Assembly (NCBI GenBank): GCA_036399215.1
Contig: DASWNL010000147.1
Coordinates: 1-40,838, forward strand
Reading direction: 5' to 3'
Origin: Abditibacteriaceae bacterium
Lineage (GTDB): Bacteria; Armatimonadota; Abditibacteriia; Abditibacteriales; Abditibacteriaceae
DNA length: 40,838 bases
Shown here one piece after another: positions 14,163-26,077 of this stretch (its first letter is position 1; each line of letters begins with the position of its first letter). Below the pieces are notes generated by a model that saw only the letters and a list, made by a program, of their open reading frames with translations, was not told the origin of the DNA and ran no database searches. The translations under genes and the position numbers were made by a program.

Positions 14163-15926
14163 GTGACCAAGGTGCGGGATATTGTGGACGAGGCAATGAC
14201 GCGGCGTGAGGAGCAGCGTCAGGAAACTTATTTCGACAACTTCGAAGACTTGCCTTCCATTGATTTCGAGCAGGCCGAAGCGGCGCTGCGCTTTGAAGAA
14301 CGCCTCAAACTACTCAATGAAATCGGCCTTGCGCTTTCAGCGGTGCGCGATATTGATATGCTGCTGGATTTAATTTTGTCCAAGGCACGCGAACTGACCG
14401 GCGCCGATGCCGGCAGCCTTTATTTAATAGATAACTCCAATACGGCTTCAACAAATGACGATACGCTCTATTTTCGCAAAGCGCAAAATGATTCGATTTA
14501 TGTAGACACTTCGCGCTCGTTTCCGGTTGGGCCATCCAGTTTAGCGGGTTATGTCGCACTAACCGGCAAGACAATGGTTTTTGAAGATGTTTACCGTCTG
14601 CCCCCGGATGCGCCCTATCAGTTCAATCAATCGTTTGATAAGGCCAACTGTTATCGCACCAAAAGCGTGCTGGTTGTGCCAATGCACAATCACAAGGGCG
14701 GTATGCTTGGCGTTCTGCAACTCATCAATCGCAAGCGCCATCGTGAGGTAAAACTCACTGACGAAGCCATCGTTGAACAAGAAGTCTTACCCTTCGACGA
14801 CGAATTAACCGACCTGGCGGCGTCTTTGGCCTCGCAGGCCTCTGTTGCTGTGCAAAACAGCCAATTCGTCAGCAGCATACGTTCGTTATTTCGCTCGTTT
14901 GTGGATGCTTCGGCCAGCGCTATTGAAGACCGAGACCCCTGCACCAGTGGTCACTCGCGGCGCGTTACCGCCCTGACGCTGGCCATGGCAAAGGCCGCCC
15001 ATGCCTCTCAGGACGGCCCCTTTAAAGATGTGCAATTTTCGCCAATTGAAATAGACGCCTTAGAATACGCCGGAAAACTGCACGACTTCGGCAAAATCGG
15101 TGTTCCCGAACACGTGCTGACCAAAAGCCACAAGTTAAAGCCGGAAGATTACGAAAAAATTAAAGGCCGCCTTTTCGCGCTTCGCCAGGAGCGCCGTGCC
15201 TATTACGCGCATGAAATGAGCCGTGCCTGGCGTTGTCAATCCTTAGAGACGGAGAAAACGGACGGTGCAAGAGATGCGGCCACCGTGTGTGCAGGCTTAG
15301 AGCAACAACTCCAGGCCGAATTGAAAGAGTTTGAAGCGTTGTTTCAAATGTTAGCTCGCGCCAATAACCCGGCAGTAACGTTTCTGCCTGATGAAGAGTT
15401 CGGCCAGCAACAGTTGCAAGTGCATCGCCTCGCACAGATGACTTATGAAGATGAAACGGGAAAGCGTTGTCCTATTATTGAGGAAAAAGAAATCAGGGCG
15501 CTTGGTATTCGTAAGGGCAGCTTGACGCAGGAAGAGTTTCACCAAATTCAAAGCCACGCCCAGCTTTCCTACGAATTCCTGAAGAAAATTCACTGGACGG
15601 AAGAATACGCGCGCATTCCGCTTATTGCCTGGGGCCACCACGAAAAATTGAATGGTAAAGGCTATCCACGCGGCGTGACGGCAGAAGAAATTCCTCTCGA
15701 AACGCGCATGATGACCGTAGCAGACATCTTTGAAGCTCTCACTGCCGAACGTCCTTATAAGCGCCCCATGCCTTTAGACCGTGCGCTTTCCATCCTGAGT
15801 GAAGAAGCCGAAAAAGGTGACCTCGATAAAGACGTAGTGCAACTGTTCATCAAAGAAAAAATCTACGAAGTTCTGCACGAAGACATTGGCACTCACAATG
15901 CCCATTGCAACGTGCCTGATCGTTAA
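14163..15926 (+). CDS. GAF domain / HD-GYP domain protein (predicted c-di-GMP phosphodiesterase)
   Basis: GAF-like N-terminal half (GADAGSLYLID...VLVVPMHNHKGGMLGVLQLINR). HD-GYP motifs HSRRV, LHDFGKIGVP, HHEKLNGKGYPRG, ADIFEALTAERPYK. GTG start with GGAG 6 nt upstream. Confidence 0.88.
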   Translation: MTKVRDIVDEAMTRREEQRQETYFDNFEDLPSIDFEQAEAALRFEERLKLLNEIGLALSAVRDIDMLLDLILSKARELTGADAGSLYLIDNSNTASTNDDTLYFRKAQNDSIYVDTSRSFPVGPSSLAGYVALTGKTMVFEDVYRLPPDAPYQFNQSFDKANCYRTKSVLVVPMHNHKGGMLGVLQLINRKRHREVKLTDEAIVEQEVLPFDDELTDLAASLASQASVAVQNSQFVSSIRSLFRSFVDASASAIEDRDPCTSGHSRRVTALTLAMAKAAHASQDGPFKDVQFSPIEIDALEYAGKLHDFGKIGVPEHVLTKSHKLKPEDYEKIKGRLFALRQERRAYYAHEMSRAWRCQSLETEKTDGARDAATVCAGLEQQLQAELKEFEALFQMLARANNPAVTFLPDEEFGQQQLQVHRLAQMTYEDETGKRCPIIEEKEIRALGIRKGSLTQEEFHQIQSHAQLSYEFLKKIHWTEEYARIPLIAWGHHEKLNGKGYPRGVTAEEIPLETRMMTVADIFEALTAERPYKRPMPLDRALSILSEEAEKGDLDKDVVQLFIKEKIYEVLHEDIGTHNAHCNVPDR

Positions 15927-15943: not shown

Positions 15944-16795
15944 ATGGCGCTTGGCCCACTGACTCATCAACCTACAGTTTCTTTATCACCTGATGACATC
16001 GCGTTCTTTCAAGAGAACGGTTTCCTGCGATTTTCTCAACTTTCAACTCCCGATGAAATTTCGATGATGCGCCAGTCGTATGATCGCATTTTTCAAACGC
16101 GCGCTGGGCGTGAAGAAGGCAATCAATTCGATCTGGCGGGCAGCGATGAAGAAGATAAAGAAGCTGCCCTGCCCCAAATTTTAGGGCCGGAAAAATACGC
16201 GCCGGAACTATGGGACACGCTCGCCCGTGCCAATGCTTTGCAAATCTGCCGTCAGCTTTTGGGCGAGGATATGCAGGCGCAGGGCAGTCACGCGATTTTC
16301 AAGCCTGCCCATCATGGCGCGGTCACACCCTGGCATCAGGACGAAGCCTACTGGAATCCCGACATGGAATATCGCTCGATAAGCGTATGGGTGCCCTTGC
16401 AAGACGTGGACGCCGCCAATGGTTGTATGCAGTTCATTCCCGGTTCGCACAAATGGGAAGTCATCGCGCACCAACCCATCAACAATGACCCGCGCATTCA
16501 CGGCCTCGAACTATCACCCGATGTGCGCCATTTAGCGCTCAATCCGGTTGTTTGCCCTTTGATGGCCGGCGGCGCAACTTTCCATCCTGGCCGCACGCTG
16601 CATTATGCGGCAGCTAATCATTCTGCTCGTCCGCGCCGCGCTTTAATTATGGGTTTTGGCGCGCCAGCCAGGCAGCGAAGCAATTTAGGCTTGCCCTCCC
16701 GTCGTTTCGTGTGGAACGACATCAAAAAGCCAGCGCGTGAAGAACGCGCTGCAAGGGCGCAGGAAAAGGCGCAAGCGGCGCAAACCGTTGCTTGA
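15944..16795 (+). CDS. Phytanoyl-CoA dioxygenase (PhyH) family Fe(II)/2-oxoglutarate oxygenase
   Basis: TPWHQDEAYW (HxD), GCMQFIPGSH, ATFHPGRTLH. SD GGGAGA upstream. Confidence 0.85.
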   Translation: MALGPLTHQPTVSLSPDDIAFFQENGFLRFSQLSTPDEISMMRQSYDRIFQTRAGREEGNQFDLAGSDEEDKEAALPQILGPEKYAPELWDTLARANALQICRQLLGEDMQAQGSHAIFKPAHHGAVTPWHQDEAYWNPDMEYRSISVWVPLQDVDAANGCMQFIPGSHKWEVIAHQPINNDPRIHGLELSPDVRHLALNPVVCPLMAGGATFHPGRTLHYAAANHSARPRRALIMGFGAPARQRSNLGLPSRRFVWNDIKKPAREERAARAQEKAQAAQTVA

Positions 16796-16826: not shown

Positions 16827-16858
16827 AAAGGCCGCGACAAATTTGTCGCGGCCTTTCA
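16827..16858 (+). terminator. Intrinsic terminator
   Basis: Palindrome ggccgcgacaaatttgtcgcggcc followed by tttcatttgcatttt. Confidence 0.75.
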
Positions 16859-16914
16859 TTTGCATTTTCGCGGCGCGAGGTCTTGCTTTAAGCATTGCTT
16901 CAAGGAGATGCGCC

Positions 16915-18000
16915 ATGAAAGTGCCCAGTGGAAAAGAGTTTGTCGAGCTTTTAAAAGAAACATTCGCGGATTTCAATGAAGATAAGGCGCCGCGTTTGGG
17001 AGCGGCTTTGTCATATTACACCATCTTCTCGCTGGCGCCGCTTTTGGTGGTGATAATGGGCATCGTCGGCCTGTTTTATTCGGGCGCCGATCAGGCTCTG
17101 CAAAAACAGATAGCCGGGGTAGTGGGCAAGGACGCTGCTGCTGCGATCTCTGAAATTTTGCAGCACGCTAATCAGAACAAAGGACATGGAATTGTGGCCA
17201 CCGTTGTGGGAACTGTGACGCTTTTATTAGGCGCCGGCGGGCTTTTTGGGCAATTGCAAGATTCGCTTAACACCATCTGGGAAGTGCGGCCCAAACCCCA
17301 GGGCTTCATGGCGATGCTCAAAAATCGCTTTCTCTCTTTTTCGATGGTGCTGGGCACCGGCTTCTTTTTGTTGGTTTCTCTGGTAGCCAGCGCTCTGATT
17401 TCCAGTGCCGGAGAATGGCTGGAAAACATGGTTAGTATGCCCGCCTTTGTATTGCAGGCTTTGAACATAATCGTCACATTTGCCGTAGTGACAGCCCTGT
17501 TCGCCACGATTTTCCGTAATCTGCCGGATGTGGAGATTGACTGGCACGATGTTTGGGTTGGTGCTGCAATGACTTCGCTGTTATTTGGCATCGGCAAGTA
17601 TGCCTTAGGCCTTTATCTGGGTAAGGGCACCATAGCTTCGGCTTATGGCGCGGCAGGCAGTCTGGCGGTTTTGCTGATCTGGATTTACTACGCGGCGCAA
17701 ATTCTCTTTTTTGGTGCTGAGTTCACCCAGGTGTATGCCAAGAAATATGGCTCGAAGATTGTGCCATCTCCCAACGCCGAACCTGTCACAGCAGAAGATC
17801 GCGCCCAACAAGGTTTGAAGCCTTCGGATGGTGGCCCGGTTGCCGAAGGCGCTGCTGTTGCCATTGCGCGACCTCATGGTCTGGGAGCAGCACAATCGCC
17901 TAAGCAACTGCAAAAACAACGCGACATGGAGTTCCTCTGGCCCGCTGCTGTTGGCTTTCTTAGCATTCTCTTGTTTGCCGAGCGCCGGAAGAAAAACTAA
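16915..18000 (+). CDS. YihY/BrkB (virulence factor BrkB / former RNase BN) family membrane protein
   Basis: DKAPRLGAALSYYTIFSLAPLLVV, LLIWIYYAAQILFFGAEFT. Start placed at ATG 16915 with AAGGAGA at 16902-16908. Confidence 0.88.
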   Translation: MKVPSGKEFVELLKETFADFNEDKAPRLGAALSYYTIFSLAPLLVVIMGIVGLFYSGADQALQKQIAGVVGKDAAAAISEILQHANQNKGHGIVATVVGTVTLLLGAGGLFGQLQDSLNTIWEVRPKPQGFMAMLKNRFLSFSMVLGTGFFLLVSLVASALISSAGEWLENMVSMPAFVLQALNIIVTFAVVTALFATIFRNLPDVEIDWHDVWVGAAMTSLLFGIGKYALGLYLGKGTIASAYGAAGSLAVLLIWIYYAAQILFFGAEFTQVYAKKYGSKIVPSPNAEPVTAEDRAQQGLKPSDGGPVAEGAAVAIARPHGLGAAQSPKQLQKQRDMEFLWPAAVGFLSILLFAERRKKN

Positions 18001-18841
18001 GCGGTATTCTTTCCAAAACTCCACCTTCAAAAACCCCATATAAGTTCAATTCGTTCATGTGAACATAGCCGATGTGACAGCCGCAAGTTTGATTGCTGCA
18101 AAGGCGCGGGCGGAGAGCGTTTTTCCAATCATTTTCGTAAATATTGCCGATTGCTTCTTTGACGAAATGACAGCGCCGCATGGTGCCGTCGCCATCTACG
18201 GAAATCACACTTTGCCCGGCATGGCAGGCGCGGCCTAAGCTTTGGTGGCGCGTGTTGTTGAGTGGAAATAGTGGGTCAAGGGCCGTTAAAAAATTGACTT
18301 CATCAGGCACATAATAATCTTCAAGACGCTTAAAGGCGTTGACCCATAAATAAACACCAGGCGGCAAAGCGGCGCGCAAGGCTTCGATTTCCGCGAAGTG
18401 TTCTTTTAATCCTACGACGCCAACACTAAAGCGAATGCCCTGCTGTTGCATCTGAGCGCAGCGTTTTAAAAACTGCTCGCATGAAGTTTCGCCGGGATGA
18501 TAAGTCACCCATAAACCCAGCTTGCTTTTGTCGCAGTGCGCGGCCCAATTGAAGCGGCATGAGCCGTTGGTTTGAATGGCGACTTTTTCGACATGCGCTA
18601 AATTGGTGAGAGTAATTAAGGCTTGCTGATAGCGCCGCCGAATCAAGGCTTCGCCCCACGGCGTGAAGAAAACCGAAAATTCCATATCGCGCTGCGCTTC
18701 GATCCATTGCACAAAACGTGATAGCGCATAAGCATCGCGCGCGTGCTCTTCATCGCTTTCCTGATGCTTGGCAAATGGGCAATAGGGGCAGGCGTAGTTG
18801 CAACTGGACAATGGCCCGCGATAAAGAATGGTAAGTTTCAT
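17960..18841 (-). CDS. Radical SAM protein, 293 aa, with twitch/SPASM-like C-terminal Cys motif (STM4011-like)
   Basis: CNYACPYC (CX3CX2C) at aa 14-21. C-terminal CHAGQSVISVDGDGTMRRC fits CX9-15GX4C, then CSNQTCGC. Confidence 0.85.
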   Translation of the reverse strand: MKLTILYRGPLSSCNYACPYCPFAKHQESDEEHARDAYALSRFVQWIEAQRDMEFSVFFTPWGEALIRRRYQQALITLTNLAHVEKVAIQTNGSCRFNWAAHCDKSKLGLWVTYHPGETSCEQFLKRCAQMQQQGIRFSVGVVGLKEHFAEIEALRAALPPGVYLWVNAFKRLEDYYVPDEVNFLTALDPLFPLNNTRHQSLGRACHAGQSVISVDGDGTMRRCHFVKEAIGNIYENDWKNALRPRLCSNQTCGCHIGYVHMNELNLYGVFEGGVLERIPLSFSSGARQTREC

Positions 18842-18844
18842 AGC

Positions 18845-20230
18845 TTAACGCAGGGCAAAAGTCTCCATCTGAGAACGCACTTGATGGGAAGCCAGCCAGG
18901 GGCCGATGACATCGGCGTTTTCGAGTCCGGCACTTGTCGGACGCAGCCCTGTGCCGTCGTTTTGCATCAAACCGAGTTCTTCCAACTCACGCAGTTGCGG
19001 AAACTCTGCCATCGCTTCGCTGCCGAAATAATCGGCATACGCCACGAAATTAAGACCTTCAACATGACCCAGCGATTGAATGATGTAACGGCGCTTTTGC
19101 TCCTCTTCGTTTAACTGAAAACCATAATCCGCGTAATCAAATGAAACAGCCGGACGCGCCATATAGTTATGCAGAATCTCGCGCACGCCTGTTGCGCCCA
19201 CGGCGTATTCGCCCGAATAGTGCAGGGTGCTGCTATAAGAGCGCGCCCCGGCGCCTAAACCTATCATGCCGTCTTGCTGGCAGCAGTAAACCGGGCCACA
19301 TTCTCCCTTCCCTTTAGTAAGGGGAAGGGCTGGAGGGTGCCCTCTGGGCGGGAGGGTTTTTTGAAACTGCCGCAGCGAAATCTGGTGATAGCCATTTTCT
19401 AAAAGAAAGTCGCGGCCCGCGCGATATAAGTCGCGTCTCGCCAAATTCTCCACTTCAATTTTGCCGTTCTGGGCGCGCTTTCCCAAGCCCGTTAAAGGCC
19501 GCACATAAAGCGGATACAAGAAAATCTCTTCGGGCCGGAATTGCAGCGCAGCGTAAAGCGAAACCTGCAAAGATTCAGTAGTTTGGCCCGGCAAGCCGAG
19601 AATCAAATCGATGTTCAGCGTCGAGAAATTTGCATCGCGAATGGCATTTAGCGCTGCTAAAACATCATCCGTTTTTTGCGCGCGGCCACCGGCGCGCACC
19701 TCGCTTTCCACAAAACTTTGCACTCCGATGCTGATGCGATTGGCGCCGCGTGATTTTAATATTTGCAGCTTTTCCGGTGTAGCTGTCAAGGGCGAAGTTT
19801 CAACGGAAACCGGAATATCCAGGGGCCGCGCGCCCATGATCTCTTCGGCAATGTCGAACAGACGATGCAAGCCGGCGGCGCTTAAAAACGTCGGCGTGCC
19901 ACCACCGATGGCCAACCCCGCGAACTGCGCCGGGGCAATCGCTTCGCGCACCTGACGCGCTTGAATTTCCAGGGCAGCCAGATACGGCTTTTCCATTTCG
20001 TCATCGTGGCGCACCGTTGTAAACAAGTTGCAGAAGCCACAACGCATCTCGCAAAACGGCACGTGCAAATACAAAAACAGCGCCTCGCGATTTTCACTTT
20101 GCCACACATCTTGCAAGGCAAACGGCGGTGATAATTTGCGATAGGCGGTTTTATGCGGATACGAATACGAATAGGCCGCATAAGGCGTTTTTTGAAGCCA
20201 CTGTTTTAAGGAATTCATTGAACTGCTCAT
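18845..20230 (-). CDS. HemN-like radical SAM protein, 461 aa (STM4012-like)
   Basis: YSYPHKTAY, LYLHVPFCEMRCGFCNLF (CX3CX2C), GGGTPTF, RISIGVQSF, GLGAGARSY. Confidence 0.88.
   Translation of the reverse strand: MSSSMNSLKQWLQKTPYAAYSYSYPHKTAYRKLSPPFALQDVWQSENREALFLYLHVPFCEMRCGFCNLFTTVRHDDEMEKPYLAALEIQARQVREAIAPAQFAGLAIGGGTPTFLSAAGLHRLFDIAEEIMGARPLDIPVSVETSPLTATPEKLQILKSRGANRISIGVQSFVESEVRAGGRAQKTDDVLAALNAIRDANFSTLNIDLILGLPGQTTESLQVSLYAALQFRPEEIFLYPLYVRPLTGLGKRAQNGKIEVENLARRDLYRAGRDFLLENGYHQISLRQFQKTLPPRGHPPALPLTKGKGECGPVYCCQQDGMIGLGAGARSYSSTLHYSGEYAVGATGVREILHNYMARPAVSFDYADYGFQLNEEEQKRRYIIQSLGHVEGLNFVAYADYFGSEAMAEFPQLRELEELGLMQNDGTGLRPTSAGLENADVIGPWLASHQVRSQMETFALR
19297..19375 (-). repeat. 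In-frame fragment of the intergenic palindromic repeat family, embedded in the HemN-like gene
   Basis: gggtgccctctgggcGggaggg (19335-19356) matches the reverse complement of 29298-29319 at 21 of 22 positions. A local hairpin cccttcccttt/aaggggaaggg (19305-19329) and a ttttgaaactg end are also present. The segment encodes ...TLPPRGHPPALPLTKGKGE... Confidence 0.6.
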
Positions 20231-20237
20231 AAAGTTT

Positions 20238-21053
20238 TCAGCGATGTCTTTCGGGCAAGACGAACTCGGCGTAAGGCACCGTCCACACGACAGGATGCGC
20301 TAAGCGATGCCCTTCATAGCCATCTTCGCCAAAGGCGGTGCCGTGATCGGAACAAAGCACACATAATGCCCCTGCCCGCTCGCGCAAAGCCTCAAAAAGG
20401 GGCGGCAGTTGCGAATCTACATAGGCTAAAGCATCGCTCATGGTTTGGATTGAGTCATTTTGCGCGCCCGGTGTCCACAGGAAGTTGGGCTGATGAATCG
20501 CCGCGATGTTGATGAACAAGAACAGGCGTTTATGGCGTGGCAGGGCACGCAAAATTTCAATTGCCCACTCGACTTGCACTTGCGCCGAATGCGCACCTGT
20601 CACACCGCTTTCTTCACCCCAGCGGCTTTCATCGAACAGATTGGGCAGAACACAGGAAAGCGGTGTGAGCTTGTTAAAAAAGCCGACGCCGCCGATGCAA
20701 GCCGTGTGATAACCGCTTTGCGCAAAGCCGGTGACAATATCAGGCGCATCGAAAATCATGGTTGTTTCTGTTGCGCTGACGCTGCCGGCAAAGCGCGTGG
20801 CAAACAGGCGCGGTGAATGCGGGTTATCAATCGGCGTCGGCAGAAAGCCGGCAAAAAAAGCATGGTGCGCCGCATAAGTAAAGCTGCCCGGCGTATGGCG
20901 CGCCTGCCAGGCGCCGCCGGGCAAGAGCGATTTTAAATAGGGCGTGCGGCCCTGTCGCAAGGCGCTTTCGGCGACATCGAAACGTAACGTGTCCAATGTC
21001 ATAAACAGCACGTCATGCGTGCCCAGCATTGAGCGCGCGTTAAGATGAAACAT
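20238..21053 (-). CDS. Alkaline-phosphatase/sulfatase-superfamily metallohydrolase, 271 aa (STM4013-like)
   Basis: LFMTLDTLRFD near the N-terminus (metal-binding Asp plus nucleophile region) and CSDHGTAFGEDGYEGH near the C-terminus. The start overlaps the upstream gene by 14 nt; ATG 21029 is an alternative. Confidence 0.75.
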   Translation of the reverse strand: MFHLNARSMLGTHDVLFMTLDTLRFDVAESALRQGRTPYLKSLLPGGAWQARHTPGSFTYAAHHAFFAGFLPTPIDNPHSPRLFATRFAGSVSATETTMIFDAPDIVTGFAQSGYHTACIGGVGFFNKLTPLSCVLPNLFDESRWGEESGVTGAHSAQVQVEWAIEILRALPRHKRLFLFINIAAIHQPNFLWTPGAQNDSIQTMSDALAYVDSQLPPLFEALRERAGALCVLCSDHGTAFGEDGYEGHRLAHPVVWTVPYAEFVLPERHR

Positions 21054-22188
21054 GATTATTTATCGCGGCATCAATTTGCGCTTCGTAGGTGGTTTGGTTT
21101 TCATGTAGCGTGCCCGGCAACAAATCGCCCCAGGCGTTGACTTCGATAATTGCATGGCGCGCAAAGCCCGCTGTGAATAGCAAATCCACGCCGCCGCATA
21201 GTGAGTTGGGAAAGCAGTGCATAACTTTCTCGCAAGAGTGCATCGCCGCTTCCCAACTTTCAGGCGAGACATTGTTGCGTAGCAGTTTGCCCTCAACTCG
21301 ATCATTCAGCAGATGTAAATTCGTCAAAGGATGCCTGGATAAGCGCACCACCTTATGTCGCGCCCGGCCCTTAATGACTACCACGCGCAAATCGCAACTG
21401 CGGCCTTGAAAGCCGTCTTTGGGAATCCACTCTTCGGCGTGCGCGCGATGGCGGCAAAGCGTATCTATTAGCTCGGCGATTTCCTGCAACGAGGTCAAAG
21501 TGCGAACGCGGCGCGAGTTGTAAAGACAGGTTTGATTTTTGGTTTTGACCACTTCGCTTGTTGTCACGGCGCGATGACTGATTCCATTAGTTTGATAAGC
21601 CACCACGCCCGCTGCACTGGAGCCGTGCGCCAACTTGATAAAAGCGCGACGGCAATGTGCCGCTTGCATCTTTGCCGTCAGGTCATCGAAGTTTTGCGGA
21701 ATGTCCAGAGTGCGCGGGGTGGGAATCTTCGCCGCGTGCAAACGCGCCTGGCAATGCGGCTTATCAAACATGATTTCAATCTCTTGCGCATTGTGCGTCA
21801 CGCAATGCGGCGCCGAATCTTTTAACTGCGTTTCAACTTCCATTAAGGCCGCTTTTAATCCCAAAAACCACTGCCGCGACGGCCAGAGACGACCTTTTTC
21901 AAAAGCTAAATCTTTAACGGAGGTGCTGGGAATCCAGGCCCATTGATTTTCAAATTCCGCTGCTTGCGCGCCGCGCTGTAAGAGCAGTTTTTCAACCGGC
22001 CAATCGCGTCCCGGCGATTCAAGGCGCACAATGTTATTGACTTGAATTATGTCAGACAGTTGAACGCGTCCGCCCAAGAAATCAGACCAGGTAATGATTT
22101 TTGCGGGCGGCAAGCCGCATGATAACAACGCACTTTGGAAGCCTTCGACGCGCGGGCTATCCGGGTTACCCAAAACAACAAATCTCAT
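21040..22188 (-). CDS. ATP-grasp-like protein, 382 aa (STM4014-like)
   Basis: RimK-like elements: FIKLAHGSSAAGVVAY, CDLRVVVIKGR, GGVDLLFTAGFARHAIIEVNAWGDL. Confidence 0.7.
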   Translation of the reverse strand: MRFVVLGNPDSPRVEGFQSALLSCGLPPAKIITWSDFLGGRVQLSDIIQVNNIVRLESPGRDWPVEKLLLQRGAQAAEFENQWAWIPSTSVKDLAFEKGRLWPSRQWFLGLKAALMEVETQLKDSAPHCVTHNAQEIEIMFDKPHCQARLHAAKIPTPRTLDIPQNFDDLTAKMQAAHCRRAFIKLAHGSSAAGVVAYQTNGISHRAVTTSEVVKTKNQTCLYNSRRVRTLTSLQEIAELIDTLCRHRAHAEEWIPKDGFQGRSCDLRVVVIKGRARHKVVRLSRHPLTNLHLLNDRVEGKLLRNNVSPESWEAAMHSCEKVMHCFPNSLCGGVDLLFTAGFARHAIIEVNAWGDLLPGTLHENQTTYEAQIDAAINNHVSS

Positions 22189-22194
22189 GCACGC

Positions 22195-23115
22195 TCATTC
22201 GCCGTGCGCCACGTAGCGATAGGTTTCAGCTCCGTCTTGGTCGCCCGCTTCCTGTTCGCTCACATCTACTTCACAGGGCAGAGCTTTGAGCTTTTCCATC
22301 ATTTCGTCGGAGCAGAAATGATGATGCAAATCCAGTTTTTCCAATTTGGTAATCGCCGCATCATCTAACAAGGCCTGCGCGCCTTTATCGGTAAGAGTGC
22401 CCAGCGATAAATCCAGAACCCGAATCTTCTTCAGAACCGGCGCCCCGTGCAACGCTTGCGCGATTTCATTTTGAATTTCGCTGTTACGCAGACCGAGATA
22501 TTTCAAATTCGGAAATAAATCACCATTCAAAAGCGGCTTTAAATCGGTGGCCGCTACTTCGCCGCCGTAGTTTTCTTCGCCCAGCCACAATTCCAGATGC
22601 TCCAACTGTGGCAACTGTGCCTGCACGACGGATTGAAATACAGCGCCTGGCATACCGCCGGTTTCGATGACCAGACCTTTTAGCTTTTCGTGACGCGGCG
22701 CGCCTAATACCAGACCATTGCCGCCGCGCACGCCCAACCATTCCAAATTGGGAAACGCCGCGAACAAAGGCGAAATGTCGGTTTGTTCAATCCAGGACAG
22801 CTCGTTCTCTTCGTAGGTGATGTCGCCGATGAAAAGCACTTTAAGCCCCGGCAGCTTTTCACCGGCGACTACCAAAGCCTCAACCACTTGCTCGGCGGAA
22901 GTTCCAAACTGTGAACCCTGCCAGTTACCGACTACGAGGCCGTCAAGTTGAGCGGCGCCGGGCGCTTGCAGCAACTCGGCTAAAAGGTCGCTCCATTTGC
23001 CGTCATTGTCATAATCCAATATCAGGCGCGGTAAAGCCTTGTCCGGCAGGCTTTGTCCCGGCTGCCAGTCGTGCACCGGGAAACCGGCAAAATCTGTTTT
23101 GTGTTCACCTATCAT
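22195..23115 (-). CDS. Leucine-rich-repeat (ribonuclease-inhibitor-type) protein, 306 aa (STM4015-like)
   Basis: LFPNLKYLGLRNSEIQNEIAQALHGAPVLKKIRVLDLSLGTLTDKGAQALL, with an acidic tail ending YRYVAHGE. Start set at ATG 23115 with GGGAGAG upstream; the tracked TTG at 23130 is less likely. Confidence 0.78.
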   Translation of the reverse strand: MIGEHKTDFAGFPVHDWQPGQSLPDKALPRLILDYDNDGKWSDLLAELLQAPGAAQLDGLVVGNWQGSQFGTSAEQVVEALVVAGEKLPGLKVLFIGDITYEENELSWIEQTDISPLFAAFPNLEWLGVRGGNGLVLGAPRHEKLKGLVIETGGMPGAVFQSVVQAQLPQLEHLELWLGEENYGGEVAATDLKPLLNGDLFPNLKYLGLRNSEIQNEIAQALHGAPVLKKIRVLDLSLGTLTDKGAQALLDDAAITKLEKLDLHHHFCSDEMMEKLKALPCEVDVSEQEAGDQDGAETYRYVAHGE

Positions 23116-23175
23116 GCGTTGCTCTCCCAAAAATTTGTCACAGTTTCAACCGTCGCCAGCCAAATAACAACCGGG

Positions 23176-24243
23176 TTACGTCTCCTGAACCGGCTGATAC
23201 TCATCAGGATTGTCAAAGCCTGCAATCCAGGCCGCCGCCGCGTGGCAGTGGCGCATCTGCGGCGGCACGCGCAGCATGTATTGGCGACCCGTCGAAGGGC
23301 AAAATACATTCAAGCACACCAGAGGCTCATCTCCGGCAAACTCCACGCGCAGTAATCGCCGCACGCCGCCGGCATCGCGGTCTTTGTCCAACTCCATGGC
23401 TCTGGCTTCGCTCAGGAATTTCTCATAGCCCATACGCTCCAGCAAGACGCGCCGCTTTTCCGTGTTTTGCTCTTCAAAAATCTCCTCAACCGTTATCGTT
23501 TCGGGACGAAAAGCAATGCGCCCATCAACCGGCACGCCGCGCCAGCGCAAGGGCGTATTTCGCAGGTTCTCCGGCAACTGCGTTAGCCCGCTACCACCTA
23601 AATCCAACCATGAAGCAATGCGCAAATCATCAGGTAATTCGCGCAAATTTTCGCAGTCGGCCACATCCAGTTGCGATAGCTCTTTAAGCCACGATGGCAA
23701 AGAGTGCAAGCGCGTGCAACCGGCCATTACTAAGCGACCAATGCGAACATTCGCTTCTTGTGGCCAATTCTTCAAACGTGAACAGCCGGCAATATCCAGA
23801 AAGTAAACATCCAGCTTTTCCGGCAAGGCTTGCAGCCCGGTGCAGCCACGCAAAACCAATGAGCCGGTTTTGAGGCCAACCGGCAGCGTTTCGATGGCGC
23901 TTTCGCTTAAATCAAGGCGAAACTCCACCTTCAAATCAGCGGGCAAGGTTTGTAGCGGCGTTTCGCGCGCTTCCAACTCAAAAAGCTGCAAGCCCTGGGG
24001 CAAAGCGCGCAGGTTTTTACAACCGCTCACCTTGAGGCGTCGCACCTTTAAATCGGTGGGCAACTCGCGCAGTTCAAGGCAGCCGCTGGCATCCAAACTG
24101 TCGGCGGTTAAACCGGCAGGCAATGTTTCCAACTTGCGATTTCCGGCAATCTTCAAAGCGCCCCGCACCTGCATATTCTCCGGCGCCTGGCCTTTGGCAA
24201 TCAACAATCCGGCTTGTTTGGCATCAAGAATTGTTTCGCTCAT
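23176..24243 (-). CDS. LRR protein (~10 repeats of ~21 aa, L..LP..L type) with a distinct ~120-aa C-terminal domain
   Basis: Repeats such as CLELRELPTDL, CKNLRALPQGL, CTGLQALPEKL, CTRLHSLPSWL, CENLRELPDDL. C-terminal domain: EKRRVLLERMGYEKFL...DEPLVCLNVFCPSTGRQYMLRVPP...AAAWIAGF. Start at ATG 24243 with AGAGGAG upstream. Confidence 0.8.
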   Translation of the reverse strand: MSETILDAKQAGLLIAKGQAPENMQVRGALKIAGNRKLETLPAGLTADSLDASGCLELRELPTDLKVRRLKVSGCKNLRALPQGLQLFELEARETPLQTLPADLKVEFRLDLSESAIETLPVGLKTGSLVLRGCTGLQALPEKLDVYFLDIAGCSRLKNWPQEANVRIGRLVMAGCTRLHSLPSWLKELSQLDVADCENLRELPDDLRIASWLDLGGSGLTQLPENLRNTPLRWRGVPVDGRIAFRPETITVEEIFEEQNTEKRRVLLERMGYEKFLSEARAMELDKDRDAGGVRRLLRVEFAGDEPLVCLNVFCPSTGRQYMLRVPPQMRHCHAAAAWIAGFDNPDEYQPVQET

Positions 24244-24258
24244 TTTGACTCCTCTTTT

Positions 24259-24398
24259 AATAGAACGCGGAGCCTTCGGCCACGCGGAAACGGCTTTGAT
24301 GGACACGGAAAATATGGGAAAACAACTCTTGAAATCTGCGAAAATCCGTCGTTTCAGGCGCCCTCTGGGCAGGATGCCCAGAGGCTCCGCGTTCTATT
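24259..24398. repeat. MITE-like palindromic element, 140 bp, with 16-bp perfect terminal inverted repeats
   Basis: aatagaacgcggagcc (24259-24274) pairs with ggctccgcgttctatt (24383-24398). Internal hairpin ccctctgggcaggatgcccagagg. It shares gccctctgggcagga with 29301-29315 (reverse complement). Confidence 0.7.
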
Positions 24399-24404
24399 GA
24401 AAAT

Positions 24405-24713
24405 TCAATCCGAAACGCGCACAATCGCACGCGGCGTATATTCGCGTTGCTGCCACACTTTATAAGCGCCACGCGGCAATTCTATGCGCTTGTGCTCTTC
24501 ATGAACTAAGGCCGCCATTTCTTCGGTCACGCTCAGATAAAGAAACTCACCAGCGCGAAAGACCTGTGCCGTTTCGGGCCGCTCCACACGATGGCTATGC
24601 CCCGTCACTTCGCCGTGCGCCAGGGTCACCGTCGGCAAAAGTCGCGCGCCCCTGGGCACCTCATCCACCCGCGCAATCATCACATCTCCATGTCGCCACA
24701 ACATTGTGCTCAC
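24405..24713 (-). CDS. Small conserved hypothetical protein, 102 aa (HGDV...HGEVTGHSH...PRGAY.V.QQREY)
   Basis: Clean ORF on the same strand as the downstream LRR genes. From memory this motif pattern occurs in small proteins common in phage genomes; unverified. Confidence 0.6.
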   Translation of the reverse strand: MSTMLWRHGDVMIARVDEVPRGARLLPTVTLAHGEVTGHSHRVERPETAQVFRAGEFLYLSVTEEMAALVHEEHKRIELPRGAYKVWQQREYTPRAIVRVSD

Positions 24714-24853
24714 TCCCTTTAAAATGCTTTCACTGGGTTAAATGATAACATTTTGAAGGTCATTTTTTAAGGTGGCGGGATGTGTTTTTTGACGCTATTT
24801 TCGGTCAAAAATCGGCGTTCAATGAAGGGGGTTGATAGCGTAAACTAAAGGGC

Positions 24854-26077
24854 ATGAAAAGCCCTGTTTCTTTTACCTGCTTGTCTCTCATTGCGTTTGG
24901 CTTGATTTCAGTTTCGTCGGCACAGGACGCGCCCGTAGTGCCACCAGGTTTGCCGCATGAGCCGACTAATGTGAAGTGGAAAAAAACGGTTGTGGATACC
25001 AGATTTCGCGCGGAAGGTGCAGCGGTAGCGGATGTGAATCACGATGGTAAAAACGATATTTTGGTGGGCGATTTTTGGTATGAAGCGCCAAATTGGACGC
25101 GCCATGAAATCCGTAAGCCGGGCGACTTTGGCGATGGGGCGAATGGATACAGCGAAGCGTTTATGAGTTTCGCCGATGATTACAACGCCGATGGTTGGAG
25201 TGACTTACTGGTAGTGCCTTTTCCCGGCAAAGCCATGTATTGGTATGAGAATCCGCAGAACAAGCCCGGCCACTGGAAGCAGCATATGGCGTGGACGAGC
25301 AGTTGCAACGAAACGCCGATTTATGCCGATCTTTTCGGCGACGGCAAGAAGAAAATCATCATGGCCAGTTGTCCCGAAGGACAAATGGCCTGGTTCGCGC
25401 CCGGTGCCGACCCGACTGCTTTGTGGACGCTGCACCCGATTAGCGGAAGCCAGAAAGCCGGCGCACAAGTGTGGGGCGTGCATCAGTTTGATCATGGTTT
25501 AGGCGCGGGTGACATGAATGGTGATGGCCGCGCTGATGTTTTGGTGCGCCAGGGTTGGTGGGAGCAGCCGGAAGATGCTAAAACGCGCACCGAGCCGTGG
25601 AAATTTCATGTAGCCAACATCGGCGAAGATTGCGCGAACATGATTGCTCTGGAAGGCAATGGCGACGCGCATACCGATGTTATTAGCAGTTCGGCGCACA
25701 AGCGTGGCATGTGGTTTCACAAGCGCGAACCGGAGCGCCCGGCGGGCTTTTCACGCCACACCATTTTTGATGCCTTCACGCAAACGCACGCTTTGAATTA
25801 TGAAGATGTAAATGGCGATGGCACCAAAGATTTGATTACTGGCAAGCGCTGGTGGGCACACGGCCCACAGGGCGATGTTGAGCCGATGGCGCCCCCTGTT
25901 TTATATTGGTTTGAAATCAGGAAAGCCCCCGGCCAGGTGCCGACTTTAGTGCCGCACATGATAGACAACGACAGCGGCATCGGCACGCAGTTCTGGACGG
26001 GCGATTTTAACGGCGACAAGAAGTGCGATGTTGTTATCGGCAACAAAAAAGGCGTTTTCTTGTTCGAGCAGAGTTAA
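24854..26077 (+). CDS. Secreted FG-GAP/VCBS repeat protein, 407 aa
   Basis: Signal peptide, then repeated Ca-binding-like DxNxDGxxD loops: DVNHDGKNDILVGD, DYNADGWSDLLV, GDMNGDGRADVLV, DVNGDGTKDLITG, GDFNGDKKCDVVIG. Confidence 0.85.
   Translation: MKSPVSFTCLSLIAFGLISVSSAQDAPVVPPGLPHEPTNVKWKKTVVDTRFRAEGAAVADVNHDGKNDILVGDFWYEAPNWTRHEIRKPGDFGDGANGYSEAFMSFADDYNADGWSDLLVVPFPGKAMYWYENPQNKPGHWKQHMAWTSSCNETPIYADLFGDGKKKIIMASCPEGQMAWFAPGADPTALWTLHPISGSQKAGAQVWGVHQFDHGLGAGDMNGDGRADVLVRQGWWEQPEDAKTRTEPWKFHVANIGEDCANMIALEGNGDAHTDVISSSAHKRGMWFHKREPERPAGFSRHTIFDAFTQTHALNYEDVNGDGTKDLITGKRWWAHGPQGDVEPMAPPVLYWFEIRKAPGQVPTLVPHMIDNDSGIGTQFWTGDFNGDKKCDVVIGNKKGVFLFEQS

Follow-up and report, generated by a model that had tools for sequence, protein, structure and literature searches.

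The STM4011-STM4015 cassette of an Abditibacteriaceae bacterium: family identity, the conserved tail of its leucine-rich repeat protein and a proposed tail-modification or carrier pathway

The stretch of DNA analysed here, 40,838 nucleotides of an Abditibacteriaceae bacterium (contig DASWNL010000147.1, called the window below), has on its minus strand a cassette of genes for two radical S-adenosylmethionine (SAM) enzymes, an alkaline-phosphatase-fold enzyme, an ATP-grasp ligase and a leucine-rich repeat (LRR) protein. They belong to the families named STM4011 to STM4015, whose genes are called g1 to g5 in the following, while the accessory genes upstream of them are called g6 and g7. The features of the locus are:

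17960-18841, minus strand: g1, 293 amino acids (aa), STM4011-family radical SAM enzyme
18845-20230, minus strand: g2, 461 aa, STM4012-family HemN-like radical SAM enzyme
20238-21053, minus strand: g3, 271 aa, STM4013/SEN3800-family alkaline-phosphatase-fold enzyme
21040-22188, minus strand: g4, 382 aa, STM4014-family ATP-grasp ligase
22195-23115, minus strand: g5, 306 aa, STM4015-family ribonuclease-inhibitor-type LRR protein
22198-22218, minus strand: codons of the g5 C-terminal heptapeptide R300-Y-V-A-H-G-E306, proposed modification or loading site
23176-24243, minus strand: g6, 355 aa, N-terminal LRRs and C-terminal DUF6745
24244-24404, minus strand: structured g7-g6 intergenic region, inverted-repeat arms and RNA fold
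24405-24704, minus strand: g7, 99-aa His-rich accessory protein
24742-24770, minus strand: sigma-70-like promoter match upstream of g7, TTAAAA-17-TATCAT with extended TG

Gene content, family identity and distribution of the cassette

The first-pass annotation of the window had described a five-gene operon, and its spacing of g1 to g5, with gaps of 3, 7 and 6 nt and one 14-nt overlap, agrees exactly with the table of open reading frames (ORFs). The five genes stand as it placed them, but the unit very probably begins further upstream and comprises seven genes, g1 to g5 plus g6 and g7, whose co-transcription is suggested by their spacing. The g5 ORF spans 22195-23130, and its likely start is the ATG at 23115, which has a GGGAGAG ribosome-binding site ahead of it. 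The promoter match upstream of g7 agrees with 9 of 12 consensus positions, in a region where such matches are no commoner than in shuffled sequence; as a consensus match, it is a possible start of the seven-gene transcription unit. The base composition is even across the region, with no sign of a foreign island.

The five core proteins score far above the curated NCBIfam cutoffs of their families, namely g1 with 410 bits on the STM4011 model NF038073 (cutoff 200), g2 with 561 bits on the STM4012 model NF006067 (380), g3 with 382 bits on the STM4013/SEN3800 model NF038075 (250), g4 with 381 bits on the STM4014 model NF038074 (175) and g5 with 343 bits on the STM4015 model NF038076 (275). These scores, together with annotated loci of Salmonella, Paenibacillus, Streptomyces and Methylobacterium that have the same core gene order, bear out the identity and order that the first-pass annotation had given. 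The profile matches that it expected were likewise recovered in NCBIfam and Pfam (the five STM401x families, Radical_SAM, HemN_C and LRR), and the motifs that it had read in g1 to g5 are real and conserved among 15-79 homologues. Compared with the catalogued five-gene set, the window adds g6 and g7 on the same strand, whereas it is without the Cof-type HAD gene of the Salmonella cassette and the WGR domain of the Bacteroides one.

The locus is thus a typical example of a cassette that has been catalogued but not characterised, and the STM401x labels are names and not functions. No functional study came up in literature searches on the names of the loci and families or on the combination of domains, in agreement with the earlier statement that no function is assigned, and searches on carrier proteins gave nothing on the cassette either. 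In the Salmonella literature, STM4011, STM4013 or STM4015 appear only in tables of expression, sigma-54 binding or positive selection; a 2012 transposon study of S. Enteritidis may mention SEN3800. New relative to the first-pass annotation are the invariant C-terminal Glu of g5, the two upstream accessory genes and the nature of the hydrolase, which is of the nucleotide pyrophosphatase/phosphodiesterase (NPP) type with a Thr nucleophile.

At least 505 of 185,579 species-representative genomes have a relative of g4, and 954 such relatives were found in a metagenome protein collection; the counts over genome loci given below rest on the best 80 of the at least 505 loci, and ORF calls in those of high GC content are crude. 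The nearest genome to the window cassette is an Abditibacteriaceae metagenome-assembled genome (MAG), with 67-88% amino-acid identity over the five proteins. Conservation of the neighbourhood across phyla, which had been put forward as a check, was found. The five genes co-occur in the order g5-g4-g3-g2-g1 across at least 11 phyla with unrelated flanks, and most of the 80 loci keep the whole cassette. Among the fetched loci, the order is kept in Abditibacteriota, Armatimonadota, Planctomycetota, Acidobacteriota, Chloroflexota, Cyanobacteria, Deinococcota, Myxococcota and Proteobacteria, and among annotated replicons it is found also in Firmicutes, Actinobacteria and Bacteroidota. The carriers span soil, freshwater, cyanobacterial and gut lineages, and include Salmonella enterica and Bacteroides.

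The linkage within the cassette is not uniform. Where both genes of a pair are present, they are adjacent on the same strand in 71 of 77 cases for g5-g4, 48 of 66 for g4-g3, 51 of 58 for g3-g2 and 52 of 54 for g2-g1. Hence, g5-g4 and g2-g1 are the tightest pairs, g5 is the gene directly upstream of g4, and split cassettes break into g5-g4 and g3-g2-g1. When 1,214 ORFs of these loci were clustered all against all, no neighbour family besides g6 and g7 recurred in more than six loci. The conserved order and the lack of any such family imply that the cassette is a self-contained unit in unrelated contexts.

The tail of the LRR protein and its partner ligase

The g5 protein was described at first as a ribonuclease-inhibitor-type LRR protein with an acidic tail, and its Pfam matches (LRR_6 and LRR_4), its structural neighbours (ribonuclease-inhibitor-type LRRs and those of nucleotide-binding LRR receptors, NLRs) and the tail itself agree with this. 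Its AlphaFold (AF2) model is an LRR solenoid with a mean confidence (pLDDT) of 91.6, in which the LRR body is confident and residues 304-306 are below 50. The best match in the PDB is 2RA8, an uncharacterised structural-genomics protein of B. fragilis (Q64V53; hidden Markov model E 4e-70, TMq 0.80), which is a solved member of the STM4015 family.

Complete STM4015 homologues end in a near-identical heptapeptide, R-[Y/F]-[V/I/C]-A-[V/H]-[S/G/A]-E, followed directly by the stop codon. Of 78 genome homologues, 75 have the terminal Glu, the other three being tail-less paralogues; it is also present in 119 of 120 homologues from metagenomes, where the one exception looks truncated. Among the genome homologues, position -7 is R in 69 of 78 and position -6 is Y or F in 72 of 78. 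Distant members keep the terminal Glu on divergent tails, namely ...NAMYTE in Salmonella, ...RYPSLTE in Paenibacillus, ...YYPMITE in Bacteroides, ...RSIAVSE in Methylobacterium and ...RYVAVGE in two Streptomyces paralogues. The linker ahead of the tail is variable in length and sequence and consists of about 31% Asp and Glu. In some genomes (loci L051 and L039, and Streptomyces), a single set of enzymes is accompanied by two or three STM4015 paralogues that bear the tail.

The tail motif is confined to the ends of g5-type LRR ORFs, truncated and frameshifted ones included. A hidden small precursor peptide is therefore rejected, in line with the earlier remark that the operon has no small precursor ORF. 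Two observations on the wider family may be added here: some STM4015-type LRR proteins have an N-terminal WGR domain (L083 6690-7763, E 6e-18; L058 13320-14783, E 2e-18), and a 487-aa Pirellulaceae paralogue of the STM4015 type (L058) ends in ...LWYGDME.

The gene that pairs with g5 encodes the ATP-grasp enzyme. The AF2 model of g4 (pLDDT 93.8) has the ATP-grasp fold. Its ATP-binding Lys (K185) and its Mg site of the form D...E-x-N (D335 and E349-x-N351) do not vary among homologues, so that the ATP-grasp motifs noted in the sequence earlier are well founded. A Foldseek search of the PDB with this model gave 501 matches at E <= 0.001, and all 50 listed are ATP-grasp-fold proteins. At the top, with E of about 1e-12, stand PsnB with its precursor peptide, ArgX/LysX with LysW, and RimK with RpsF. 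These enzymes ligate onto a peptide or protein carboxylate, which for LysW and S6 is that of a C-terminal Glu. By sequence, the likeness of g4 to known ATP-grasp enzymes is weak: MptN is the best NCBIfam match outside its own family (E 1e-4), and the RimK profile gives E 0.2.

On this evidence, the tail of the g5 LRR protein may be the substrate or carrier in a cytoplasmic protein-tail modification or carrier pathway, to which we give a probability of roughly 0.5. The first-pass annotation had suggested that a small molecule, a peptide or a protein is synthesised or modified, the LRR protein being a possible scaffold, substrate or sensor; this is compatible with the findings, and the evidence now favours the substrate. 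The tail is the most constrained and unusual feature of STM4015, with a practically invariant terminal Glu behind a drifting linker, and the last residues of g5 are disordered in a model with a confident LRR body. Likewise, g5-g4 is among the tightest pairs and is kept in split cassettes, and the closest structures to g4 are ligases caught with a protein or peptide substrate. The tail-bearing paralogues multiply beside one enzyme set as the precursor genes of peptides that are ribosomally synthesised and modified after translation (RiPPs) do, and no small precursor ORF has the motif.

Three known systems resemble this arrangement in part. As in the LysW-LysX/ArgX pathways, a RimK-type ATP-grasp gene lies beside that of an acidic protein with a C-terminal Glu, a residue essential in LysW, and the complexes of LysX/ArgX are among the top structural matches of g4. 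However, the candidate carrier is a 306-aa LRR protein and not a zinc-ribbon protein of about 54 aa, and the cassette lacks genes of the LysZ/Y/J/K type, be it for a kinase, a reductase, an aminotransferase or a hydrolase for release. It has two radical SAM enzymes and an NPP-type phosphoesterase instead, and the covalent loading is a predicted one. The RimK-S6 system would share an ATP-grasp enzyme acting on the C-terminal Glu of a folded protein, with RimK and RimK-RpsF among the top Foldseek matches of g4, but the RimK profile match is marginal (E 0.2), g4 is about 90 residues longer, and the cassette has a dedicated LRR partner and further tailoring enzymes.

Similarly, RiPP and scaffold-peptide pathways (PsnB graspetides, PqqE and MftC with the C-termini of precursors as their targets, and pearlins) combine a gene-encoded C-terminal motif with ATP-grasp and auxiliary-cluster radical SAM enzymes, and they share with the cassette the multi-copy substrate genes seen at some loci, PsnB being the top structural match of g4. 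They differ in that the cassette has no short precursor, no RiPP recognition element (RRE) or PqqD domain and no protease, so that the 'leader' would be the whole LRR domain, and the STM4015 tail has one invariant residue only, the terminal Glu.

If the proposal is true, the carrier-protein and C-terminal-tail chemistry known from LysW, S6, pyrroloquinoline quinone (PQQ), mycofactocin and pearlins would be extended to a folded LRR protein. The invariant Glu at the C-terminus, a partner ligase that resembles LysX, RimK and PsnB, and the links to phosphatases now give a concrete hypothesis for what was previously a set of database names, with two radical SAM enzymes of no known reaction; the read-out of this hypothesis is the mass of one C-terminal peptide.

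Phosphatases, radical SAM enzymes and the proposed pathway

The phosphoesterase g3 has the invariant residues D21, T59, H63, D236, H237 and H249 in homologue alignments. The metal-site motifs of the alkaline-phosphatase superfamily that had been recognised in g3 are confirmed by these residues, which align to the metal and nucleophile sites of Xanthomonas NPP (2GSN): the segment SFT59YAAH aligns to its SLTFPNH nucleophile motif, and its DG.R.D and SDHG motifs are also aligned. The Pfam matches are weak, both for Phosphodiest (23.9 against a gathering score of 23) and for Sulfatase. No C/S-x-P-x-R motif is present in g3, where Thr holds the nucleophile position (F-T-Y-A-A-H). Hence, g3 is by its sequence an NPP-type phosphoesterase with a Thr nucleophile, not a formylglycine sulfatase, and a role of g1 as its anSME-like maturase is ruled out by the Thr nucleophile and the missing CxPxR motif.

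A second type of phosphatase accompanies the cassette in some lineages. In Salmonella, the gene of a Cof-type HAD-IIB phosphatase overlaps the end of STM4011 (L081 12685-13419), and in Bacteroides finegoldii, a Cof-type HAD-IIB-like domain is fused to STM4011 (L083 9142-10707). This overlap and fusion, together with the NPP-type g3, tie phosphoryl chemistry to the pathway. The B. finegoldii copy, on a plasmid, seems at first to be a three-gene cassette. Between STM4014 and the STM4011-HAD fusion, however, it keeps only a piece of the STM4013 N-terminus and what seems to be a piece of the STM4012 C-terminus (L083 8764-9130), which are unannotated in the PLSDB gene table. With these remnants, it is most likely a deletion derivative, so that its reading as a minimal core is rejected and only the fusion is used as evidence.

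The radical SAM enzyme g1 has the cluster motif C14-x3-C18-x2-C21 and further Cys at C128, C206-x12-G219-x4-C224 and C248-x4-C253-x-C255. Each of the nine Cys (C14, C18, C21, C128, C206, C224, C248, C253 and C255) is kept by at least 90% of 53 homologues, and an alignment of 15 sequences shows no variation at any of them. The protein falls short of the Pfam Radical_SAM gathering score (PF04055, 28.7 bits against 29.5), yet all 15 STM4011 members tested match, and no sequence relative of g1 was found in the PDB. The first-pass annotation had called a twitch/SPASM-like domain. Its Cys motif is present and conserved, but the Pfam SPASM match is sub-threshold (15.3 bits against 21.5, E 0.025, residues 206-243) and the call has no other basis; the g1 alignment covers model positions 1-43 of 67 only, and 3 of the 15 STM4011 members match. 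The auxiliary-cluster domain of the SPASM/twitch subgroup has Cx9-15Gx4C with more Cys ligands after it, and a full SPASM domain needs a total of seven or eight Cys, whereas g1 has five or six conserved Cys outside the SAM cluster. A match to the first half of SPASM with five or six extra Cys fits a twitch-like C-terminal region with one auxiliary cluster, not a full SPASM domain, though it does not prove it.

The HemN-type motifs CEMRCGFC and GGGTP read earlier in g2 are conserved (C60-x3-C64-x2-C67, with the cluster Cys in at least 90% of homologues, and GGGTP at 109-113), and Pfam gives Radical_SAM (PF04055, E 9e-22) and HemN_C (E 6e-7). In the PDB, g2 matches E. coli HemN best (1OLT, E 3e-30, residues 19-290, from the N-terminal extension onward), with the class C methyltransferase NocN next (5e-20). 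With HemN and the class C methyltransferases, g2 thus shares CxxxCxxC, GGGTP, HemN_C and a HemN-like N-terminal segment.

A role in tetrapyrrole or haem metabolism, with STM4012 as a HemN/HemW/ChuW-type enzyme acting on a porphyrin and the other genes tailoring or trafficking a tetrapyrrole, would draw on this full-length likeness and on the scores of about 1e-41 to 1e-44 that the ChuW/HutW, HemW and HemN models give on g2. It is very improbable. Those scores (142-152 bits for HemN, HemW and ChuW/HutW, and 117 for HemZ) are all far below curated cutoffs of 205-400, against the 561 bits of the STM4012 model; around the cassette, further genes for haem, porphyrins or transport do not recur, in keeping with a genomic context unrelated to haem, and the LRR tail, the ATP-grasp enzyme and the phosphoesterase would have no role. 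The HemN likeness may be read in another way. HemN takes CO2 off propionate side chains to give vinyl groups, and the side chain of Glu is itself a propionate, so STM4012 could conceivably make a vinylglycine-type residue from Glu, an idea that has a chemical precedent but is pure speculation.

The proposed modification of the g5 tail takes the observed gene identities, folds, conservation and linkage as its starting point, and the carboxylate used, the ligated amine, the radical SAM chemistry and any release would be as follows. STM4015 would present a flexible C-terminal tail, made of the acidic linker and then R-Y-V-A-V/H-S/G-E. The ATP-grasp enzyme STM4014 would phosphorylate a carboxylate of the terminal Glu and join to it an amine, from an amino acid or another amino compound, in a step modelled on LysX/ArgX with LysW and RimK with ribosomal protein S6. 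The radical SAM enzymes STM4012 (HemN-like) and STM4011 (twitch-like) would remodel the terminal or appended residue. STM4013 would take a phosphoryl group off an intermediate or the ligated building block, and in some lineages the Cof-type HAD phosphatase would be added for this or a related step. The pathway would end either in a mature LRR protein whose C-terminus is modified or in a small molecule that is assembled on the tail and subsequently set free. As an optional module, g6 and g7 may act on this product or read it. The phosphoryl chemistry tied to the cassette and the behaviour of the set as one self-contained unit argue for such a pathway.

Several points weigh against this proposal. 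D-Ala-D-Ala ligases follow closely in the Foldseek ranking of g4 (E 1e-11 to 1e-10), so that the fold of g4 by itself is not decisive for a protein-modifying role, and g4 is only marginally similar to RimK or MptN in sequence. Residues 292-299 of g5, ahead of the heptapeptide, are modelled as strands (mean pLDDT 82 for 291-300), and this segment may be structural rather than a free arm. No peptidase or amidase for product release is recognisable in the cassette, no cassette protein has an RRE/PqqD-type recognition domain in NCBIfam or Pfam, and no homologue of LysZ, LysY, LysJ or LysK lies in the cassette or recurs in its flanks. Moreover, a 306-aa LRR protein is very unlike the known carriers or RiPP precursors, and it is not obvious what a phosphoesterase of the alkaline-phosphatase fold would do in the known carrier-protein pathways.

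The same phosphatases and the MptN likeness could point to a small-molecule pathway, for a modified sugar phosphate, nucleotide or cofactor. The ATP-grasp enzyme would then join small molecules like MptN, CofF, DdaF or NikS/PolG, the radical SAM enzymes would act on a phosphorylated metabolite and the phosphoesterases would finish the product, while the LRR protein would be a scaffold, chaperone or regulator with a tail that docks non-covalently, for example, as a glutamate mimic. MptN, the best NCBIfam match of g4 outside its family, is a small-molecule glutamate ligase; phosphatases are tied to STM4011 by fusion or overlap and g3 is NPP-like; radical SAM enzymes, phosphatases and ATP-grasp enzymes co-occur in peptidyl-nucleoside pathways; and no release enzyme is needed. 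We consider this rather unlikely, as it leaves unexplained the near-invariance of the terminal Glu amid a drifting linker, the tight g5-g4 pairing and the multiplied tail-bearing paralogues, and the nearest structures to g4 are protein- or peptide-modifying ligases.

A bolder form of the tail-modification proposal is that STM4015 is a new class of carrier or substrate, with STM4014 loading or activating its terminal Glu and the radical SAM enzymes and the phosphoesterase building an unprecedented product; this is a tentative idea and somewhat unlikely. Such a product would, speculatively, be a protein-bound warhead or cofactor or a released metabolite, with g6 and g7 as reader or processor of the modified tail. 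There is a real chance that the chemistry of the cassette is unprecedented. If the tail is modified as proposed, two orphan families of radical SAM enzymes, one orphan family with the alkaline-phosphatase fold and DUF6745 would gain an assigned chemistry.

Accessory genes, genomic context and neighbours

The accessory protein g6 has the DUF6745 domain (Pfam PF20530, E 6e-22), and its LRR part matches the plant receptors RPP1 and Roq1, of the Toll/interleukin-1 receptor-type NLR (TNL) kind, and XopL-like chains. It is found in about 25-30 of the 80 cassette loci, with varying position and orientation. In g7, the motifs HGD, GHSHR, HEEH and QREY are invariant and a terminal Asp is present in all 76 homologues, and the protein has no Pfam, NCBIfam or PDB match. 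In the g6 homologues, the last two residues are Glu and then Thr, Ser or Ala, which is a further conserved C-terminus besides the Asp of g7.

The g6-g7 pair accompanies about one third of the cassettes, mostly convergent after g1. In a metagenome search seeded with g7, g6 lies directly downstream of g7 in 45 of 46 loci, and a core cassette gene is present in 24 of the 32 loci having at least 4 kb of downstream sequence. Methylobacterium has the same seven-gene layout annotated, and Streptomyces has the same seven genes together with g6-g7 divergent from the core cassette. This recurrent linkage of g6 and g7 to each other and to the cassette indicates a dedicated optional module.

The intergenic region between g7 and g6 has an inverted repeat with 28-nt arms at 24255-24282 and 24375-24402, 92 nt apart, and the arm sequence is found nowhere else in the window. 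Its RNA fold has an energy of -64.1 kcal/mol (z = -4.9; 0 of 200 shuffles were as stable) and stops just ahead of the g6 ribosome-binding site. No Rfam family matches the region at gathering score, and a riboswitch or known RNA upstream is rejected, as the SAM-Chlorobi match (E 0.95) is at chance level.

The resemblance of these LRRs to immune receptors brings up the immunity role with viperin-like logic that the first-pass annotation had offered as an alternative. In a conflict or anti-phage system, the LRR protein or proteins would sense an invader, the radical SAM enzymes would make a modified nucleotide and the phosphoesterases would process it. Besides the g5 LRRs resembling NLR and ribonuclease-inhibitor LRRs, and those of g6 resembling plant TNL receptors and type III effector LRRs, the N-terminal WGR domain in some STM4015 members, weak matches to a generic viperin model (E 3e-4 to 3e-3) and the patchy distribution over phyla in unrelated contexts would fit such a role.

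However, the cassette proteins match no defence system in PADLOC v2, where only sub-threshold generic radical SAM hits were obtained, and the 142 flanking ORFs of 64 loci show no defence enrichment, with matches confined to TnpB-like models, IscS-like ones and a few candidates. A defence-island context is thus unsupported. The 2.9 million viral contigs of IMG/VR have no cassette relatives, and INPHARED gave three partial matches only (about 62% of g4), one in a 156-kb Salmonella genomic record and two in unannotated fragments. The Salmonella cassette, moreover, sits at one housekeeping position between ompL and typA, and the invariant C-terminal Glu and the ligase pairing play no part in the model. 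With these results, the viperin-like alternative is unsupported and improbable.

Mobility by phages or plasmids was rejected on the same IMG/VR and INPHARED results and because the plasmid matches are megaplasmids, chromids or misassigned chromosome. For example, the Salmonella Infantis 'plasmid' record NZ_CP019203.1 (L081) also has glnA, glnLG, typA, ompL and yihS, genes by which it looks like chromosomal sequence labelled as plasmid. Complete E. coli genomes gave no cassette at megablast sensitivity.

Genes inserted within some cassettes are Uma2-family elements or unrelated genes. The Uma2-family genes, which encode putative restriction endonucleases, lie inside or beside the cassette in Chloroflexaceae and cyanobacterial genomes (L029 11147-11674; L032 11150-11677; L034 4721-5212; L054 14925-15650). 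Two cyanobacterial MAGs have, directly downstream of g1, a tandem array of four or five paralogues of about 300 aa (L077 15386-19852; L079 15555-19154), of which the one member searched against Pfam gave no match.

In the window, the gene divergent from g7 (24854-26077) encodes a protein with FG-GAP repeats, an XAC2610-related N-terminal segment and a probable signal peptide, the last judged by eye from the N-terminal sequence; the gene is not conserved near the cassette. On the other side, the plus-strand neighbours encode a GAF and HD-GYP-type protein (14163-15926), a PhyH-family dioxygenase (15944-16795) and a BrkB/YihY membrane protein (16843-18000), none of which recurs beside the cassette at other loci. 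The 3' end of the BrkB/YihY gene overlaps that of g1 by 41 nt.

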